The notes: generated from the letters alone by a model not told the origin. DNA of 64,000 nt from Escherichia coli (GCF_009931435.1 NZ_CP043414.1), one strand, 5' to 3'. Numbered from the stretch's first letter, positions 4,233 to 47,107 are shown. Numbers and translations: made by a program.

Positions 4233-4361
4233 TTTTATGCTCTTATCGTGGTTTATCCGCTAAAAGCATAGTCAACAGTTCATCTGCCTGGCGGCGGTGA
4301 TAGCGCCTTTGAGATAAAACCCGTATTATTGCGCGCTTTCCGTACGACTAAAGTGATTTTC

Positions 4362-6122
4362 ATGACGCAAACATTTATCCCCGGCAAAGATGCCGCTCTG
4401 GAAGATTCCATCGCTCGCTTCCAACAAAAACTTTCAGACCTCGGTTTTCAGATTGAAGAGGCCTCCTGGCTGAATCCCGTGCCTAACGTCTGGTCTGTGC
4501 ATATTCGCGACAAAGAGTGCGCACTGTGTTTTACCAACGGTAAAGGCGCAACCAAAAAAGCGGCGCTGGCTTCTGCACTCGGTGAATATTTCGAGCGTCT
4601 GTCTACCAACTACTTTTTTGCTGACTTCTGGCTGGGCGAAACCATCGCCAACGGTCCATTCGTGCATTATCCCAACGAAAAATGGTTCCCACTGACCGAA
4701 AACGACGATGTACCAGAAGGGCTGCTCGATGACCGTCTGCGCGCATTTTACGATCCGGAGAATGAACTGACCGGCAGCATGCTGATTGACCTACAATCTG
4801 GTAACGAAGATCGTGGTATTTGCGGTCTGCCGTTTACGCGCCAGTCCGACAATCAGATCGTTTATATTCCGATGAATATCATTGGTAACCTGTACGTTTC
4901 TAACGGTATGTCCGCTGGCAATACCCGCAACGAAGCGCGCGTTCAGGGATTATCTGAAGTTTTCGAACGCTACGTGAAAAACCGCATTATTGCTGAAAGC
5001 ATCAGCCTGCCAGAGATCCCGACAGACGTGCTGGCGCGTTATCCAGCGGTGGTTGAAGCGATCGAAACACTGGAAGCGGAAGGTTTCCCGATCTTCGCTT
5101 ATGATGCCTCGCTTGGCGGTCAATATCCGGTGATCTGCGTGGTACTGTTCAATCCAGCTAACGGTACCTGCTTTGCATCCTTCGGTGCACATCCTGATTT
5201 TGGCGTTGCACTGGAACGTACCGTGACCGAGTTGCTGCAAGGCCGCGGTCTGAAAGATTTGGATGTGTTTACTCCGCCAACCTTCGATGATGAAGAAGTC
5301 GCTGAACATACTAACCTCGAAACGCACTTTATCGATTCCAGCGGTTTAATCTCCTGGGACCTATTCAAGCAGGATGCTGATTATCCGTTTGTGGACTGGA
5401 GCTTCTCAGGCACCACGGAAGAAGAGTTTGCTACGCTGATGGCTATCTTCAACAAAGAAGATAAAGAAGTTTATATTGCCGATTACGAGCATCTGGGCGT
5501 TTATGCTTGCCGCATTATCGTGCCTGGCATGTCCGATATTTATCCGGCAGAAGATCTGTGGCTGGCGAATAACAGCATGGGCAGCCATTTACGTGAAACG
5601 ATTCTTTCACTCCCAGGCAGCGAGTGGGAAAAAGAAGATTACCTGAACCTCATCGAGCAACTGGATGAAGAAGGTTTTGATGACTTTACCCGCGTGCGTG
5701 AGCTATTGGGTCTGGCAACCGGGCCGGATAACGGCTGGTACACTCTGCGTATCGGTGAATTAAAGGCTATGTTGGCGCTGGCTGGTGGCGATCTGGAACA
5801 GGCTCTGGTCTGGACTGAATGGACGATGGAATTTAACTCATCAGTGTTCAGTCCGGAACGCGCCAACTATTATCGCTGTCTGCAAACGTTGTTATTACTG
5901 GCACAGGAAGAAGACCGCCAACCACTGCAATATCTGAATGCCTTCGTTCGTATGTATGGCGCAGATGCCGTAGAAGCCGCCAGTGCGGCAATGAGCGGTG
6001 AATCGGCGTTTTATGGCTTGCAACCCGTAGATAGCGATCTGCACGCGTTTGCTGCACATCAGTCGTTGTTGAAGGCCTACGAAAAGCTGCAGCGCGCCAA
6101 AGCAGCATTCTGGGCAAAATAA
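4362..6122 (+). CDS. ycaO: YcaO-domain protein (ribosomal protein S12 methylthiolation accessory factor)
   Basis: ORF track begins at an upstream alternative start (4329). ATG at 4362 (MTQTFIPGKDAALED...) gives the expected 586 aa. Confidence 0.9.
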   Translation: MTQTFIPGKDAALEDSIARFQQKLSDLGFQIEEASWLNPVPNVWSVHIRDKECALCFTNGKGATKKAALASALGEYFERLSTNYFFADFWLGETIANGPFVHYPNEKWFPLTENDDVPEGLLDDRLRAFYDPENELTGSMLIDLQSGNEDRGICGLPFTRQSDNQIVYIPMNIIGNLYVSNGMSAGNTRNEARVQGLSEVFERYVKNRIIAESISLPEIPTDVLARYPAVVEAIETLEAEGFPIFAYDASLGGQYPVICVVLFNPANGTCFASFGAHPDFGVALERTVTELLQGRGLKDLDVFTPPTFDDEEVAEHTNLETHFIDSSGLISWDLFKQDADYPFVDWSFSGTTEEEFATLMAIFNKEDKEVYIADYEHLGVYACRIIVPGMSDIYPAEDLWLANNSMGSHLRETILSLPGSEWEKEDYLNLIEQLDEEGFDDFTRVRELLGLATGPDNGWYTLRIGELKAMLALAGGDLEQALVWTEWTMEFNSSVFSPERANYYRCLQTLLLLAQEEDRQPLQYLNAFVRMYGADAVEAASAAMSGESAFYGLQPVDSDLHAFAAHQSLLKAYEKLQRAKAAFWAK

Positions 6123-6127
6123 AATCA

Positions 6128-6200
6128 AATAGCCTACGCAATGTAGGCTTAATGATTCGTCTGAGTTATATTACGGGGCGTTTTTTTAATGCCCCGCTTT
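6128..6200. other. Two inverted repeats downstream of ycaO (agcctacgcaatgtaggct; cggggcg-T7-aatgccccg); possible terminator or structured element
   Basis: Palindromes read directly from the sequence; no clean downstream U-run, so the terminator call is weak. Confidence 0.3.
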
Positions 6201-6453
6201 ACATATATTTGCATTAATAAAATAATTGTAATTATAAAGTTAAATATCGATAATTTGTATTTAATAAATACGATCGATATTGTTACTTTATTCGCTTGGT
6301 GCTCCCTTTTAATTAACTGTTTTAGCGGAGGATGCGGAAAAAATTCAACTCATTTGTTAATTTTTAAAATTTATTTTTATTTGGATAATCAAATATTTAC
6401 TCCGTATTTGCATAAAAACCATGCGAGTTACGGGCCTATAAGCCAGGCGAGAT

Positions 6454-6467
6454 ATGATCTATATCAA
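6454..6467 (+). promoter_or_regulatory. FNR-like binding site (ATGATctatATCAA) in the focA-pflB anaerobic promoter region
   Basis: 13 of 14 match to TTGAT-N4-ATCAA, about 60-70 bp upstream of the focA GTG start, with -10-like hexamers (tataat 6477-6482; tagtat 6490-6495) downstream. focA-pflB is a known FNR/ArcA-regulated operon. Confidence 0.45.
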
Positions 6468-6527
6468 TTTCTCATCTATAATGCTTTGTTAGTATCTCGT
6501 CGCCGACTTAATAAAGAGAGAGTTAGT

Positions 6528-7385
6528 GTGAAAGCTGACAACCCTTTTGATCTTTTACTTCCTGCAGCAATGGCCAAAGTGGCCGAAGAGGCAGGTGTCT
6601 ATAAAGCAACGAAACATCCGCTTAAGACTTTCTATCTGGCGATTACCGCCGGTGTTTTCATCTCAATCGCATTCGTCTTCTATATCACAGCAACCACTGG
6701 CACAGGAACAATGCCCTTCGGCATGGCAAAACTGGTTGGCGGCATTTGCTTCTCTCTGGGGCTGATTCTTTGTGTTGTCTGCGGAGCCGATCTCTTTACT
6801 TCCACAGTGTTGATTGTTGTTGCTAAGGCGAGTGGGCGCATCACCTGGGGTCAGTTGGCGAAAAACTGGCTAAATGTCTATTTTGGCAACCTGGTCGGCG
6901 CACTGCTGTTTGTACTTTTAATGTGGCTTTCCGGCGAGTATATGACCGCGAATGGTCAATGGGGACTAAACGTCCTACAAACCGCCGACCACAAAGTGCA
7001 CCATACTTTTATTGAGGCCGTCTGCCTTGGTATCCTGGCAAACCTGATGGTATGTCTGGCAGTATGGATGAGTTATTCTGGCCGCAGCCTGATGGATAAA
7101 GCGTTCATTATGGTGCTGCCGGTCGCGATGTTTGTTGCCAGCGGTTTTGAGCACAGTATCGCAAACATGTTTATGATCCCGATGGGTATTGTAATCCGCG
7201 ACTTCGCATCTCCGGAATTCTGGACCGCTGTCGGTTCTGCACCGGAAAATTTTTCTCACCTGACCGTGATGAACTTCATCACTGATAACCTGATTCCGGT
7301 TACGATCGGTAATATTATCGGCGGTGGTTTGTTGGTTGGGTTGACATACTGGGTCATTTACCTGCGTGAAAACGATCACCATTAA
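6528..7385 (+). CDS. focA: Formate channel FocA (formate/nitrite transporter family)
   Basis: GTG start at 6528 (VKADNPFDLLLPAAMAKVAEEAG...) gives 285 aa. The 398-aa ORF in the track is an artefactual upstream extension through AT-rich leader. Confidence 0.93.
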   Translation: MKADNPFDLLLPAAMAKVAEEAGVYKATKHPLKTFYLAITAGVFISIAFVFYITATTGTGTMPFGMAKLVGGICFSLGLILCVVCGADLFTSTVLIVVAKASGRITWGQLAKNWLNVYFGNLVGALLFVLLMWLSGEYMTANGQWGLNVLQTADHKVHHTFIEAVCLGILANLMVCLAVWMSYSGRSLMDKAFIMVLPVAMFVASGFEHSIANMFMIPMGIVIRDFASPEFWTAVGSAPENFSHLTVMNFITDNLIPVTIGNIIGGGLLVGLTYWVIYLRENDHH

Positions 7386-7439
7386 TGGTTGTCGAAGTAC
7401 GCAGTAAATAAAAAATCCACTTAAGAAGGTAGGTGTTAC

Positions 7440-9722
7440 ATGTCCGAGCTTAATGAAAAGTTAGCCACAGCCTGGGAAGGTTTTACCAAAGGTGACTGGC
7501 AGAATGAAGTAAACGTCCGTGACTTCATTCAGAAAAACTACACTCCGTACGAGGGTGACGAGTCCTTCCTGGCTGGCGCTACTGAAGCGACCACCACCCT
7601 GTGGGACAAAGTAATGGAAGGCGTTAAACTGGAAAACCGCACTCACGCGCCAGTTGACTTTGACACCGCTGTTGCTTCCACCATCACCTCTCACGACGCT
7701 GGCTACATCAACAAAGCGTTGGAAAAAGTTGTTGGTCTGCAGACTGAAGCTCCGCTGAAACGTGCTCTTATCCCGTTCGGTGGTATCAAAATGATCGAAG
7801 GTTCCTGCAAAGCGTACAACCGCGAACTGGACCCGATGATCAAAAAAATCTTCACTGAATACCGTAAAACTCACAACCAGGGCGTGTTCGACGTTTACAC
7901 TCCGGACATCCTGCGTTGCCGTAAATCCGGTGTTCTGACCGGTCTGCCAGATGCTTATGGCCGTGGTCGTATCATCGGTGACTACCGTCGCGTTGCGCTG
8001 TACGGTATCGACTACCTGATGAAAGACAAATACGCTCAGTTCACCTCTCTGCAGGCTGATCTGGAAAACGGCGTAAACCTGGAACAGACTATCCGTCTGC
8101 GCGAAGAAATCGCTGAACAGCACCGCGCTCTGGGTCAGATGAAAGAAATGGCTGCGAAATACGGCTACGACATCTCTGGTCCGGCTACCAACGCTCAGGA
8201 AGCTATCCAGTGGACTTACTTCGGCTACCTGGCTGCTGTTAAGTCTCAGAACGGTGCTGCAATGTCCTTCGGTCGTACCTCCACCTTCCTGGATGTGTAC
8301 ATCGAACGTGACCTGAAAGCTGGCAAGATCACCGAACAAGAAGCGCAGGAAATGGTTGACCACCTGGTCATGAAACTGCGTATGGTTCGCTTCCTGCGTA
8401 CTCCGGAATACGATGAACTGTTCTCTGGCGACCCGATCTGGGCAACCGAATCTATCGGTGGTATGGGCCTCGACGGTCGTACCCTGGTTACCAAAAACAG
8501 CTTCCGTTTCCTGAACACCCTGTACACCATGGGTCCGTCTCCGGAACCGAACATGACCATTCTGTGGTCTGAAAAACTGCCGCTGAACTTCAAGAAATTC
8601 GCCGCTAAAGTGTCCATTGACACCTCTTCTCTGCAGTATGAGAACGATGACCTGATGCGTCCGGACTTCAACAACGATGACTACGCTATCGCTTGCTGCG
8701 TAAGCCCGATGATCGTTGGTAAACAAATGCAGTTCTTCGGTGCGCGTGCAAACCTGGCGAAAACCATGCTGTACGCAATCAACGGCGGCGTTGACGAAAA
8801 ACTGAAAATGCAGGTTGGTCCGAAATCTGAACCGATCAAAGGCGACGTCCTGAACTACGATGAAGTGATGGAGCGCATGGATCACTTCATGGACTGGCTG
8901 GCTAAACAGTACATCACCGCACTGAACATCATCCACTACATGCACGACAAGTACAGCTACGAAGCCTCTCTGATGGCGCTGCACGACCGTGACGTTATCC
9001 GCACCATGGCATGTGGTATTGCTGGTCTGTCCGTTGCTGCTGACTCCCTGTCTGCAATCAAATATGCGAAAGTTAAACCGATTCGTGACGAAGACGGTCT
9101 GGCTATCGACTTCGAAATCGAAGGCGAATACCCGCAGTTTGGTAACAACGACCCGCGTGTAGATGACCTGGCGGTTGACCTGGTAGAACGTTTCATGAAG
9201 AAAATTCAGAAACTGCACACCTACCGTGACGCAATCCCGACTCAGTCTGTTCTGACCATCACTTCTAACGTTGTGTATGGTAAGAAAACTGGTAACACCC
9301 CAGACGGTCGTCGTGCTGGCGCGCCGTTCGGACCGGGTGCTAACCCGATGCACGGTCGTGACCAGAAAGGTGCTGTAGCATCTCTGACTTCCGTTGCTAA
9401 ACTGCCGTTTGCTTACGCTAAAGATGGTATCTCCTACACCTTCTCTATCGTTCCGAACGCACTGGGTAAAGACGACGAAGTTCGTAAGACCAACCTGGCT
9501 GGTCTGATGGATGGTTACTTCCACCACGAAGCATCCATCGAAGGTGGTCAGCACCTGAACGTTAACGTGATGAACCGTGAAATGCTGCTCGACGCGATGG
9601 AAAACCCGGAAAAATATCCGCAGCTGACCATCCGTGTATCTGGCTACGCAGTACGTTTCAACTCGCTGACTAAAGAACAGCAGCAGGACGTTATTACTCG
9701 TACCTTCACTCAATCTATGTAA
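7440..9722 (+). CDS. pflB: Pyruvate formate-lyase (formate C-acetyltransferase 1), glycyl-radical enzyme
   Basis: 760-aa [46 protein letters not shown]... with the C-terminal glycyl-radical region (RVSGYAVRF). Confidence 0.98.
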
Positions 9723-9791: not shown

Positions 9792-9913
9792 GCACGAGAG
9801 CCTTTTTTGTCAGCTATCTATACTTTAAGGTGACTGCCAAAACAGACTCGACGTAGCCTTCGAGCTGCGCACCAACACGGCCTCAGATGGGCCACATCTG
9901 GAGAAACACCGCA

Positions 9914-10654
9914 ATGTCAGTTATTGGTCGCATTCACTCCTTTGAATCCTGTGGAACCGTAGACGGCCCGGGTATTCGCTTTATCACCTTTTTCCAGGGC
10001 TGCCTGATGCGCTGCCTGTATTGTCATAACCGCGACACCTGGGACACGCATGGCGGTAAAGAAGTTACCGTTGAAGATTTGATGAAGGAAGTGGTGACCT
10101 ATCGCCACTTTATGAACGCTTCCGGCGGCGGCGTTACCGCATCCGGCGGTGAAGCAATCCTGCAAGCTGAGTTTGTTCGTGACTGGTTCCGCGCCTGCAA
10201 AAAAGAAGGCATTCATACCTGTCTGGATACCAACGGTTTTGTTCGTCGTTACGATCCGGTGATTGATGAACTGCTGGAAGTAACCGACCTGGTAATGCTC
10301 GATCTCAAACAGATGAACGACGAGATCCACCAAAATCTGGTTGGAGTTTCCAACCACCGCACGCTGGAGTTTGCTAAATATCTGGCGAATAAAAATGTGA
10401 AGGTGTGGATCCGCTACGTTGTTGTCCCAGGCTGGTCTGACGATGACGATTCAGCGCATCGCCTCGGTGAATTTACCCGTGATATGGGCAACGTTGAGAA
10501 AATCGAGCTTCTCCCCTACCACGAGCTGGGCAAACACAAATGGGTGGCGATGGGTGAAGAATACAAACTTGATGGTGTTAAACCACCGAAGAAAGAGACC
10601 ATGGAACGCGTGAAAGGCATTCTTGAGCAGTACGGTCATAAGGTAATGTTCTAA
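9914..10654 (+). CDS. pflA: Pyruvate formate-lyase activating enzyme (radical SAM)
   Basis: ATG at 9914 ([39 protein letters not shown]...) gives 246 aa with the CxxxCxxC radical-SAM motif. Confidence 0.97.
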
Positions 10655-15123: not shown

Positions 15124-15437
15124 GAATTAAAACCGTGAGGAAGTTCAAATTTCATGCGCATCATGCCACCGCCAAAAACATTGTCAATGGGTGAAAATAC
15201 GCGCATATCGCAGCTGAGGTATTATCGATTTATATTACTCATTCATAACGCTAATGCTGGAGAGACGATTAATCTCATCTGATTGTTTTTATTGATCTAA
15301 CACAAATTTCATACGCTTCGTTCAGTCGAAAAATTTCATGGTCACAGCAAACTCATATTTCCCGTCTATGCTTTCAGAGCAATGCATCGCGTCTGACCGA
15401 TTTCAGACGTACCGCTGACTCTCGAAAGGAGAAGAGG

Positions 15438-20036: not shown

Positions 20037-20227
20037 AATGGCTCACTCAAGCTTGCTCACGATTGATTCCAGTAACAAACCGTATTGTGTAATTATTTCT
20101 ATAGCAGTTCGCTATATAGGTTTGTATATATCGAATAATTTGAAAATCAAAGAGATAGGTAGATTTTCACTCGAAAGTAGTATTACGTGTAAGTGAGGAG
20201 TAATTATTGTTCGGTATCAAAGGGAGA

Positions 20228-40692: not shown

Positions 40693-41804
40693 TGTGCAGC
40701 TCCTGGTTTGGCCTCACCAATCACCACTTCATCGCCCGCTTCCAGCCCTTTGACAATCTCAACATCGGTGTCGTTACGTGCACCAATCGTCACTTCACGC
40801 TCGCGTGTTTCACCATTACGCAACAATTTGACTTTATAACGATTATCGCCAACCGGATCGCCTAACGCCGACAGAGGGATCGTCAGCACATTTTTCACAT
40901 CGGTGAGCTGAATATGCACTTGCGCGGTCATATCCAGCCGCAGCAAACCATTGGGGTTGGGTACTTCAAAACGGGCGTAATAGAAAATAGCGTCGTTAAC
41001 CTTTTCCGGCGTCGGTAGCACATCCTTGATTTGCCCCTCATAGCGCGTCAGCGGATCGCCAAGCACCGTAAACCAGGCTTTTTGCCCCGGCTTCAGGTGG
41101 ATTACATCCGCTTCAGAAACCTGCGCTTTTACCAGCATGGTGCTCATATCTGCCAGCGTCAGAATGTTCGGTGCTTGTTGTGCGGCAATCACCGTCTGGC
41201 CTTGCAGAGTGGTGATTTGCGTGACTTCCCCGGCCATCGGGGCAACGATGCGGGTGTAATCGAGATTGGTTTTAGCCGTATCGAGTGAGGCCTGATTACG
41301 CTTGATTTGCGCGTCAATGGTGCCAATTTGCGCCTGTTTCACAGCCATCTCCGTCGCGGCGGTATCGAGATCCTGCTGTGAAACCGCCTGCGTTTGTGCA
41401 AGACGTTGCTGACGGGAATACGTCACCCGCGCCAGTTTCAGCTCCGCTTCCGCCTGCTGCCGCTGCGCGCGTAGCTCCATCAGCGTTGCTTCCACCTCCT
41501 TGATCTGGTTTTCAGCTTGTTCAGGATCAATAACCCCTAAAAGCTGGTCTTTTTTTACTTTATCGCCAATCGCCACCGACAGCGTTTTCAACTGACCGCT
41601 GACCTGCGCGCCCACATCAACCTTACGCAGCGCGTCCAGCTTTCCGGTCGCCAGCACGCTTTGCTGTAAATCACCGGGGCGCACAATCAGCGTCTGATAA
41701 GTCGGCACGGGTGCGTTAAGAATTCTCCATAACGTAATCAGCCCGGCAATGACTATCACCAGCGCAATAACGTAACGCTTCTTCACGGTTTTCCGCTTTT
41801 TCAT
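40689..41804 (-). CDS. macA: Macrolide efflux periplasmic adaptor (membrane fusion protein) MacA
   Basis: ATG at 41802-41804 ([21 protein letters not shown]...) gives 371 aa; the stop overlaps the macB start by 4 nt. Confidence 0.95.
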
Positions 41805-44566: not shown

Positions 44567-44991
44567 ATCCCCTCCAGAAATATGTGACTTATCCTTTACG
44601 CTGGCAGTATAACGGGAAAGGCCGTGCTAATACGTGATGACATCACATTTAAGCATGGCAAATGTCTGAAAAATGAGCGAATAATCGCGTTATACTCCCT
44701 CTTGCTGATAAGTCTGCAAAAACAACAAAATCAAATAATTAGCATGATAAATTATTTTTTATTACGCCTAAAGGATTAAATCTTTTGCTTGCACTACACT
44801 GTCAATCAGACAAATGACTATATGGGGCAACCCGCTGTTGCCCTAAATCAAATTTACTGGATTTATTTATCTGGTGAATGACTCGCCTTCGTTTTTAAAA
44901 TAGCCGCGCATTATTTCCGTCGTCACTTTTTTACGACGACCCTATAAAACGACCATATTTTTCACAGGGTCAATTTTTAATTGAGGTGGAT

Positions 44992-47093: not shown

Positions 47094-47107
47094 TTGCGCT
47101 AAATCAA
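47094..47107 (+). promoter_or_regulatory. FNR-like site (TTGCGctaaATCAA) upstream of hcp
   Basis: Matches TTGAT-N4-ATCAA at 12 of 14 positions, about 100 bp upstream of the hcp start; hcp is a known anaerobically induced gene. Confidence 0.4.

Follow-up and report, generated by a model that had tools for sequence, protein, structure and literature searches.

The DNA in front of focA raises a simple question: how much of this long and very AT-rich stretch controls focA-pflB, and through which elements? By the window we mean the whole stretch of Escherichia coli DNA that was analysed (64,000 nucleotides, one strand, GCF_009931435.1 NZ_CP043414.1), in which a preliminary description had seen, at 6123-6527, an extended control region. 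The region governs the entry to mixed-acid fermentation (pyruvate to formate and acetyl-CoA) and the export of formate, and it is a textbook case of the integration of FNR, ArcA and IHF over about 400 bp. We will argue, with a probability of about 0.93, that 6123-6527 is the native focA-pflB (pfl) promoter-regulatory region of a chromosome of the E. coli lineage, with the ycaO 3' UTR and its terminator in front of it. This control region is already known, and the features that are specific to the window are minor (the SNPs at 6299 and 6250).

The spacer between ycaO and focA

Since the TAA of ycaO occupies 6120-6122 and the GTG of focA 6528-6530, positions 6123-6527 are the entire ycaO-focA spacer, of 405 bp. 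According to the ORFs and to annotation transfer, the genes around it are serC and ycaP on the minus strand, then ycaO, focA, pflB and pflA on the plus strand, which is the K-12 order on the opposite strand. The K-12 spacer also measures 405 bp (NC_000913.3 954,467-954,871, minus strand), 400 of the 405 positions match the window, and the proximal 228 bp (6300-6527) are without any difference. Published K-12 data were placed on the window by subtracting the U00096.2 coordinate from 960,217. The spacer was found in 5,423 of 5,426 complete E. coli genomes. As to the strain itself, no complete E. coli genome exceeds 99.1% identity to the first 24 kb of the window, and most lie at 95-99%; the source therefore belongs to a poorly represented Escherichia/Shigella lineage.

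The earlier statement that about 400 bp of AT-rich DNA precede a GTG-initiated focA was exact as regards composition: the GC content is 30.6% in the spacer and 23.6% in 6196-6420, against 50.1% in the 64-kb window. Ranked by GC, the spacer falls among the bottom 1.25% of 405-bp segments, and the 64 kb contain two other AT-rich zones of this kind. That the whole of it is focA-pflB control DNA, as had also been proposed, holds for most of its length but not for its beginning: the first 75-90 bp, from 6123 to about 6200, form the ycaO 3' UTR with its terminator and not focA control DNA proper. The features discussed below are collected in Table 1.

At its 5' end, the mechanical frame of ycaO (4329-6122, 597 aa, TTG) exceeds the annotated protein (586 aa) by 11 codons, and that of pflA (9887-10654, 255 aa) begins 9 codons before the K-12 start (246 aa). 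Supplementary expression ratios of 3.78 for ycaO, 0.15 for focA and 0.21 for pflB have been published (PMC3688515). If these are read as aerobic over anaerobic wild type, which is our assumption about the column, then the two genes that flank the spacer respond oppositely to oxygen, the ratio being 3.78 on the ycaO side and 0.15 on the focA side.

Table 1. Features of the ycaO-focA spacer and its borders (window coordinates; identity to the window among 77 sequences of Enterobacteriaceae)
Feature	Coordinates	Strand	Identity	Basis and remarks
ycaO stop codon TAA	6120-6122	+		ORF 4329-6122 plus K-12 and AR_0013 annotation; left edge of the spacer
ycaO 3' UTR hairpin 1, AGCCTAC-GCAAT-GTAGGCT	6131-6149	+		fold
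Near-invariant TATATTAC	6167-6174	+	about 96-100%	directly 5' of the terminator stem
ycaO intrinsic terminator hairpin, CGGGGCGTT-TTTTT-AATGCCCCG	6174-6196	+		9-bp stem; fold and covariation
Candidate distal promoter (P7 candidate), TTTACA-17-AATAAT	6198-6226	+		predicted start about 6233
ArcA direct-repeat array	6215-6268	+		K-12 four-repeat site 953,949-954,002; core TTGTAATTATAAAGTTAA at 6226-6243
Strain-private G-to-A	6250	+		within the ArcA array; GGTAAT to GATAAT; G in K-12 and AR_0013
Conserved islands of the distal/central spacer	6280-6381			TTGTTACTTTA 6280-6290; CCCTTTTAATTAAC 6304-6317; AAAAAATTCAACTC 6338-6351; A/T tract 6358-6381
TGG codon in the spurious frame (TGA in K-12)	6297-6299	+		SNP comparison
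Candidate IHF core AATCAAATATTTA (consensus WATCAANNNNTTR)	6387-6399	+		exact consensus match; candidate by sequence
Distal spacer			61%
Proximal spacer (112 bp)	6416-6527		91.5%
GC-richer conserved island 5' of the FNR site	6420-6453			holds the near-palindrome GGCCTATAAGCC; conservation
FNR site ATGATCTATATCAA	6454-6467		96%, variation only in the N4 spacer	centre 6460.5; consensus, matrix, K-12 ChIP-seq, conservation
-10 of the upstream overlapping promoter, perfect TATAAT	6477-6482	+	99.8%	mapped K-12 5' end at 6491, 37-nt leader
Putative P6 -10, TAGTAT (FNR-dependent class II promoter)	6490-6495	+	100%	start about 6501-6502; hexamer placed by spacing
focA leader (26-37 nt) to GTG			98%
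Purine-rich weak Shine-Dalgarno AAAGAGAGAG (6513-6522), 5-nt gap, GTG (6528-6530)	6513-6530	+		sequence; RefSeq start
focA CDS (285 aa)	6528-7385	+	83%, third positions 60%	pflB 5' ends internal at 7086 and 7184

FNR and the proximal promoters

The FNR-like site reported at 6454-6467 fits TTGAT-N4-ATCAA at 9 of 10 consensus positions. With at most one mismatch, six such sites occur in 64 kb, so the site is not rare by plain consensus; because this kind of matching discriminates poorly, we derived a matrix from 12 K-12 FNR sites bound in ChIP, that of focA being left out. With this matrix, 6454-6467 ranks first among 63,987 14-mer positions, at 16.4 bits, and the runner-up in the spacer scores 5.1 bits. 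In K-12, FNR ChIP-seq peak centres at 953,741-953,746 correspond to 6471-6476, 10-15 bp from the site; the bound site predicted there, TTGATATAGATCAT at 953,750, is the reverse complement of window 6454-6467, and no nucleoid-protein masking is recorded for it (PMC3688515). Consensus, matrix rank and in vivo binding of the K-12 counterpart thus all uphold the site. A second FNR site, by matrix (above 5.1 bits) or by consensus (above 7/10), was not found in the spacer, though two are counted in the same publication (PMC3688515).

The K-12 site is listed at -40.5 from the transcription start, and the operon as FNR-activated (PMC3688515); the P6 start therefore falls at about 6501 in the window. 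The comparison with the mapped P6 promoter is in agreement, with the FNR site at -40.5, a suitably spaced TAGTAT and a sequence equal to that of K-12. The sequence has the consensus match, the start spacing near -41.5 and the properly placed -10 of a class II FNR promoter. In practice, a 0.35-kb fragment with the FNR box and pflBp6 drives foreign operons anaerobically, so that this pair serves as a portable promoter for anaerobic expression cassettes (PMC4833968). The perfect TATAAT that overlaps P6 has its own mapped start: a K-12 5' end at 953,726 is window 6491, 8 nt past TATAAT, and the upstream sequence is identical (PMC3415461). The pflB 5' ends within focA (Table 1) come from the same K-12 data (PMC3415461).

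The preliminary description had also pointed to several -10-like hexamers. Nine are indeed present in the spacer (at least 5/6 matches), but they do not significantly exceed composition-matched shuffles (5.9 +/- 2.3, p about 0.14): their number is the one expected from AT-richness alone, and as a class they are uninformative. Among them, only TATAAT at 6477-6482 and TAGTAT at 6490-6495 have independent support.

Conservation across Enterobacteriaceae

A collection of FocA relatives gave 80 species loci across Enterobacteriaceae, 77 of them usable, in which identity to the window was calculated per column. The spacer measures 382-407 bp in the 47 loci with a recognised YcaO C-terminus. Its proximal 112 bp are more conserved than the focA coding sequence itself (91.5% vs 83%), and conservation peaks exactly at the FNR half-sites and at the -10 elements (Table 1). 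On the 5' side of the FNR site, 6416-6453 is 84% conserved and, from 6431 on, mostly above 90% (77 sequences). The near-palindrome found there is centred at 6438.5, 22 bp or two helical turns upstream of the FNR centre and at about -62.5 from P6.

ArcA, IHF and a candidate distal promoter

K-12 ArcA ChIP peaks at 953,962-953,967 correspond to 6250-6255, within the predicted four-repeat site of Table 1 (PMC3798270). A matrix made from 16 other ArcA sites gives 15.4 bits to the core at 6226-6243, so that the matrix scans place the FNR site first and the ArcA core fifth in the window. Per-column identity over 6226-6245 is 79% among the 77 sequences.

The distal part also contains the best sigma70 consensus match of 5900-7600, TTTACA-17-AATAAT (10/12). 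Genomic SELEX with the RpoD holoenzyme found binding in the focA/ycaO spacer, and the same two hexamers were predicted there (PMC3946193); outside Escherichia they are weakly conserved (TTTACA 58%, AATAAT 46%). Two K-12 sigma70 ChIP-seq peaks are assigned to focA, at about 6522 and about 6185, and both are about 6-7-fold higher anaerobically (PMC3688515). A distal 5' end is absent from the aerobic K-12 5'-end data set (PMC3415461), and no NarL heptamer (TACYYMT) occurs in 6100-6560.

IHF control of pfl is cited in the literature (PMC3798270, PMC2636881), and the candidate IHF core is an exact match of a kind that occurs 11 times in the window against 2.7 expected; it is 80% conserved in the 77 species, with a conserved A/T tract upstream. 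Between it and the ArcA array, the islands within 6280-6381 reach 77-90% column identity vs 61% for the distal spacer overall, and the one at 6280-6290 contains a further TGTTAC. These islands are presumably protein-binding DNA, perhaps further ArcA sites and an IHF A-tract, an assignment to proteins suggested by their sequence. With K-12 ChIP data, 5' ends, sigma70 peaks and an IHF core match all falling on near-identical sequence, the multi-promoter FNR/ArcA/IHF architecture that had been ascribed to this region is supported, with the IHF site and the distal promoter as candidates.

The ycaO 3' end and possible RNA-level constraints

The beginning of the spacer is of another nature. The segment 6118-6215 folds at -30.4 kcal/mol (z = -5.1) and forms two hairpins of unequal conservation. 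Across genera, only GTAGGC of hairpin 1 is kept, and the hairpin is missing in Klebsiella and Raoultella. The GGGG/CCCC pairs of the second one are retained in 13-15 of 15 genera and its inner pairs covary (7 sequences changed on both sides); this GC-rich covarying hairpin, with its U-tract, makes an intrinsic terminator for ycaO, although the tract is interrupted here. Indeed, the T-tract is weak in this lineage (CTTTACATATATTT), whereas other genera have a strong and clean T-run, and in Escherichia the interrupted run reads TTTACA, the -35 of the SELEX-predicted distal promoter. Directly before the stem, TATATTAC surpasses the last part of the ycaO coding sequence in conservation. It could belong to the ycaO 3' end as an AU-rich element; alternatively, with the distal sigma70 peak (about 6185) only some 15 bp off, it could be the -10 of a distal promoter whose transcripts would start inside the terminator stem.

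Part of the conservation might thus act at the level of RNA, either through an sRNA made from the ycaO 3' UTR and ending at 6174-6196, or through structure of the focA leader or its pairing with an sRNA. The good fold of the ycaO 3' UTR speaks for the first, as does the invariant AU-rich TATATTAC beside a covarying terminator, an arrangement seen at many 3' ends bound by Hfq. The weak T-tract of this lineage speaks against it; Rfam returned no family match, the sole sub-threshold hit (LSU_trypano_mito, E = 0.33) being spurious and due to AT-richness, and in the literature on ycaO or focA with Hfq or sRNAs we found no report of a ycaO 3'-UTR RNA. The second is favoured by the 98% conservation of the leader and by the focA mRNA being a strong pull-down target of the sRNA RprA, with a focA translational fusion repressed by 35-50% (PMC5861431). 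The computed RprA-leader duplex energy is no better than that of random 100-nt windows, a result of a crude and uninformative method. As promoter elements and the ArcA, IHF and FNR sites already explain most of the conserved blocks, we consider a contribution of RNA improbable. On a smaller scale, RprA repression might contribute to the near-invariance of the focA leader (6491-6560).

Chance, foreign DNA and the focA start

AT-rich DNA generally attracts H-NS and similar proteins, and one could see in the spacer merely odd or foreign DNA coated by nucleoid proteins, with an FNR match due to chance. The six one-mismatch consensus sites of the window and a number of -10-like hexamers not beyond composition would suit such a reading, but the spacer is syntenic and of conserved length in 77 species, its FNR site is the top matrix match of 64 kb and is bound in vivo in K-12 with no nucleoid-protein masking recorded, and conservation is highest precisely at the FNR half-sites and -10 elements. 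We hold this reading to be very improbable. Horizontal-transfer origin and chance motif are both rejected, being contradicted by the synteny, ChIP and conservation data.

The remaining reading is that of the annotation track, in which the spacer would be mostly coding. Its mechanical ORF of 398 aa, open in the window from ATG 6189 to 7385, would give FocA an N-terminal extension of 113 residues, and it owes its openness to a single SNP: at 6297-6299 this strain reads TGG, K-12 TGA. None of the 76 other species loci has an open upstream extension, and codon periodicity is absent from it (conservation by codon position 0.73/0.71/0.71 vs 0.92/0.97/0.60 in focA). The 113 residues have no Pfam match, the formate/nitrite transporter domain starting after residue 127, and the solved FocA (PDB 3KCU, 285 aa) aligns from residue 114 of the ORF, which is the GTG codon. 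As the region also holds mapped 5' ends and promoter elements, a coding extension is effectively refuted, the 398-aa ORF must count as an artefact of the SNP at 6299, and the frame had rightly been set aside as non-coding. The GTG start given earlier to focA is equally secure: it is found in all 77 usable species loci, it is the RefSeq start and it is where the 3KCU alignment begins. Suppmann and Sawers are said to have shown the GUG start experimentally in 1994.

Proposed functioning of the focA-pflB control region

Nothing was found that contradicts the reading as the native focA-pflB control region, and this reading allows one to propose how its elements may work together. IHF-mediated looping and an interplay of the two proximal promoters belong to the picture of pfl that came from the Sawers laboratory. 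Transcripts of ycaO would end at the hairpin 6174-6196. Without oxygen, dimeric [4Fe-4S] FNR would bind ATGATCTATATCAA, centred some 40.5-41.5 bp before the start of P6 (about 6501), and act as a class II activator recruiting sigma70 RNA polymerase at the TAGTAT -10 (6490-6495). Ten bases upstream, TATAAT (6477-6482) would provide an overlapping, FNR-independent start at 6491 for basal (aerobic) expression, with a -35 region that the FNR site would cover. Some 230-290 bp upstream, ArcA-P would occupy the direct-repeat array at 6215-6268, and probably further TGTTA-type elements, and an anaerobically induced distal sigma70 promoter may lie near 6165-6235. Bending of the AT-rich DNA by IHF at 6387-6399 would let the distal module (ArcA and promoter) and the proximal one (FNR and P6) act jointly. 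The mRNA leaders would then be 26-37 nt long, or about 300 nt from the distal promoter; the GUG start and the weak Shine-Dalgarno would make FocA translation inefficient and keep FocA low relative to PflB, which the 5' ends inside focA would additionally feed. What we infer from published K-12 work and general knowledge is the order of events, the looping by IHF and the part played by each proximal promoter.

The K-12 focA-pflB region is the closest relative of this system: it shares the locus, the FNR site, the IHF core, the ArcA repeats, both -10 hexamers, the leader and the GTG, and it differs by five SNPs, of which 6299 removes the in-frame TGA and 6238 and 6250 fall in the ArcA array. The class II FNR promoters (dmsA, narG, yfiD/grcA, nikA) have in common with it a TTGAT-N4-ATCAA site about 40.5-41.5 bp upstream, sigma70 dependence and anaerobic induction (PMC3688515). 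Unlike them, focA overlaps a second, perfect-TATAAT promoter whose start lies 10 bp upstream (6491), and it is coupled to a distant ArcA/IHF module and to another sigma70 peak, which lies about 340 bp off. Among other long, AT-rich anaerobic control regions to which both ArcA and FNR bind, that of cydAB likewise carries several ArcA direct-repeat sites, a site for FNR and more than one transcription start, and cydA and focA have for these reasons been treated together as exceptions (PMC3798270). There is nevertheless a difference of sign: at cydAB, FNR is a repressor and ArcA works against H-NS, whereas both activate at focA-pflB, where according to the same study it is not known how ArcA does so (PMC3798270).

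Variation in this strain and elsewhere in the window

The five SNPs that distinguish the spacer from that of K-12 are at 6158, 6238, 6250, 6296 and 6299. As two of them (6238 and 6250) lie within the ArcA array, ArcA control could differ quantitatively here. At 6238, the A of the window (G in K-12) occurs commonly in other genera, and with it the ArcA matrix gives a slightly higher score (15.4 vs 14.7 bits). The A at 6250 is present in none of the 5,426 complete E. coli genomes, and the other 14 aligned genera have G; it falls in a GGTAA element resembling a repeat of the array, right below the K-12 ArcA ChIP peak, and it completes a TTGTAA-17-GATAAT (6226-6254) that matches the promoter consensus at 9/12. 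This private change may be a regulatory variant that weakens the dependence on ArcA or adds a constitutive distal focA-pflB promoter, an idea that we regard as improbable. An analogy exists with experimental evolution in the mouse gut, where IS insertions into the control DNA of focA are selected again and again (PMC3945185), and one natural complete genome, that of E. coli TUM14668, carries an IS1 (locus 2252-2949) in the spacer at the equivalent of about 6245, so that the ArcA array is cut off from the proximal promoters. In view of these gut-selected and natural insertions, the 6250 SNP could conceivably affect regulation.

Elsewhere in the window, other high FNR-matrix scores are found at 20207-20220, which we take to be the dmsA site, and at 44838-44851, 47094-47107, 15292-15305, 41517-41530 and 41661-41674. 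Those at 44838 and 47094 correspond, on the other strand, to the listed aqpZ/ybjD and hcp sites (PMC3688515) and were hence in the training set of the matrix. The largest AT-rich zone of the window is 56475-58685 (down to 28% GC), with the gene of a pentapeptide-repeat protein beside ybjP/ybjQ/amiD; 56000-59500 is covered to at least 80% in only 1,123 of the 5,426 complete E. coli genomes, which makes it a variable island.
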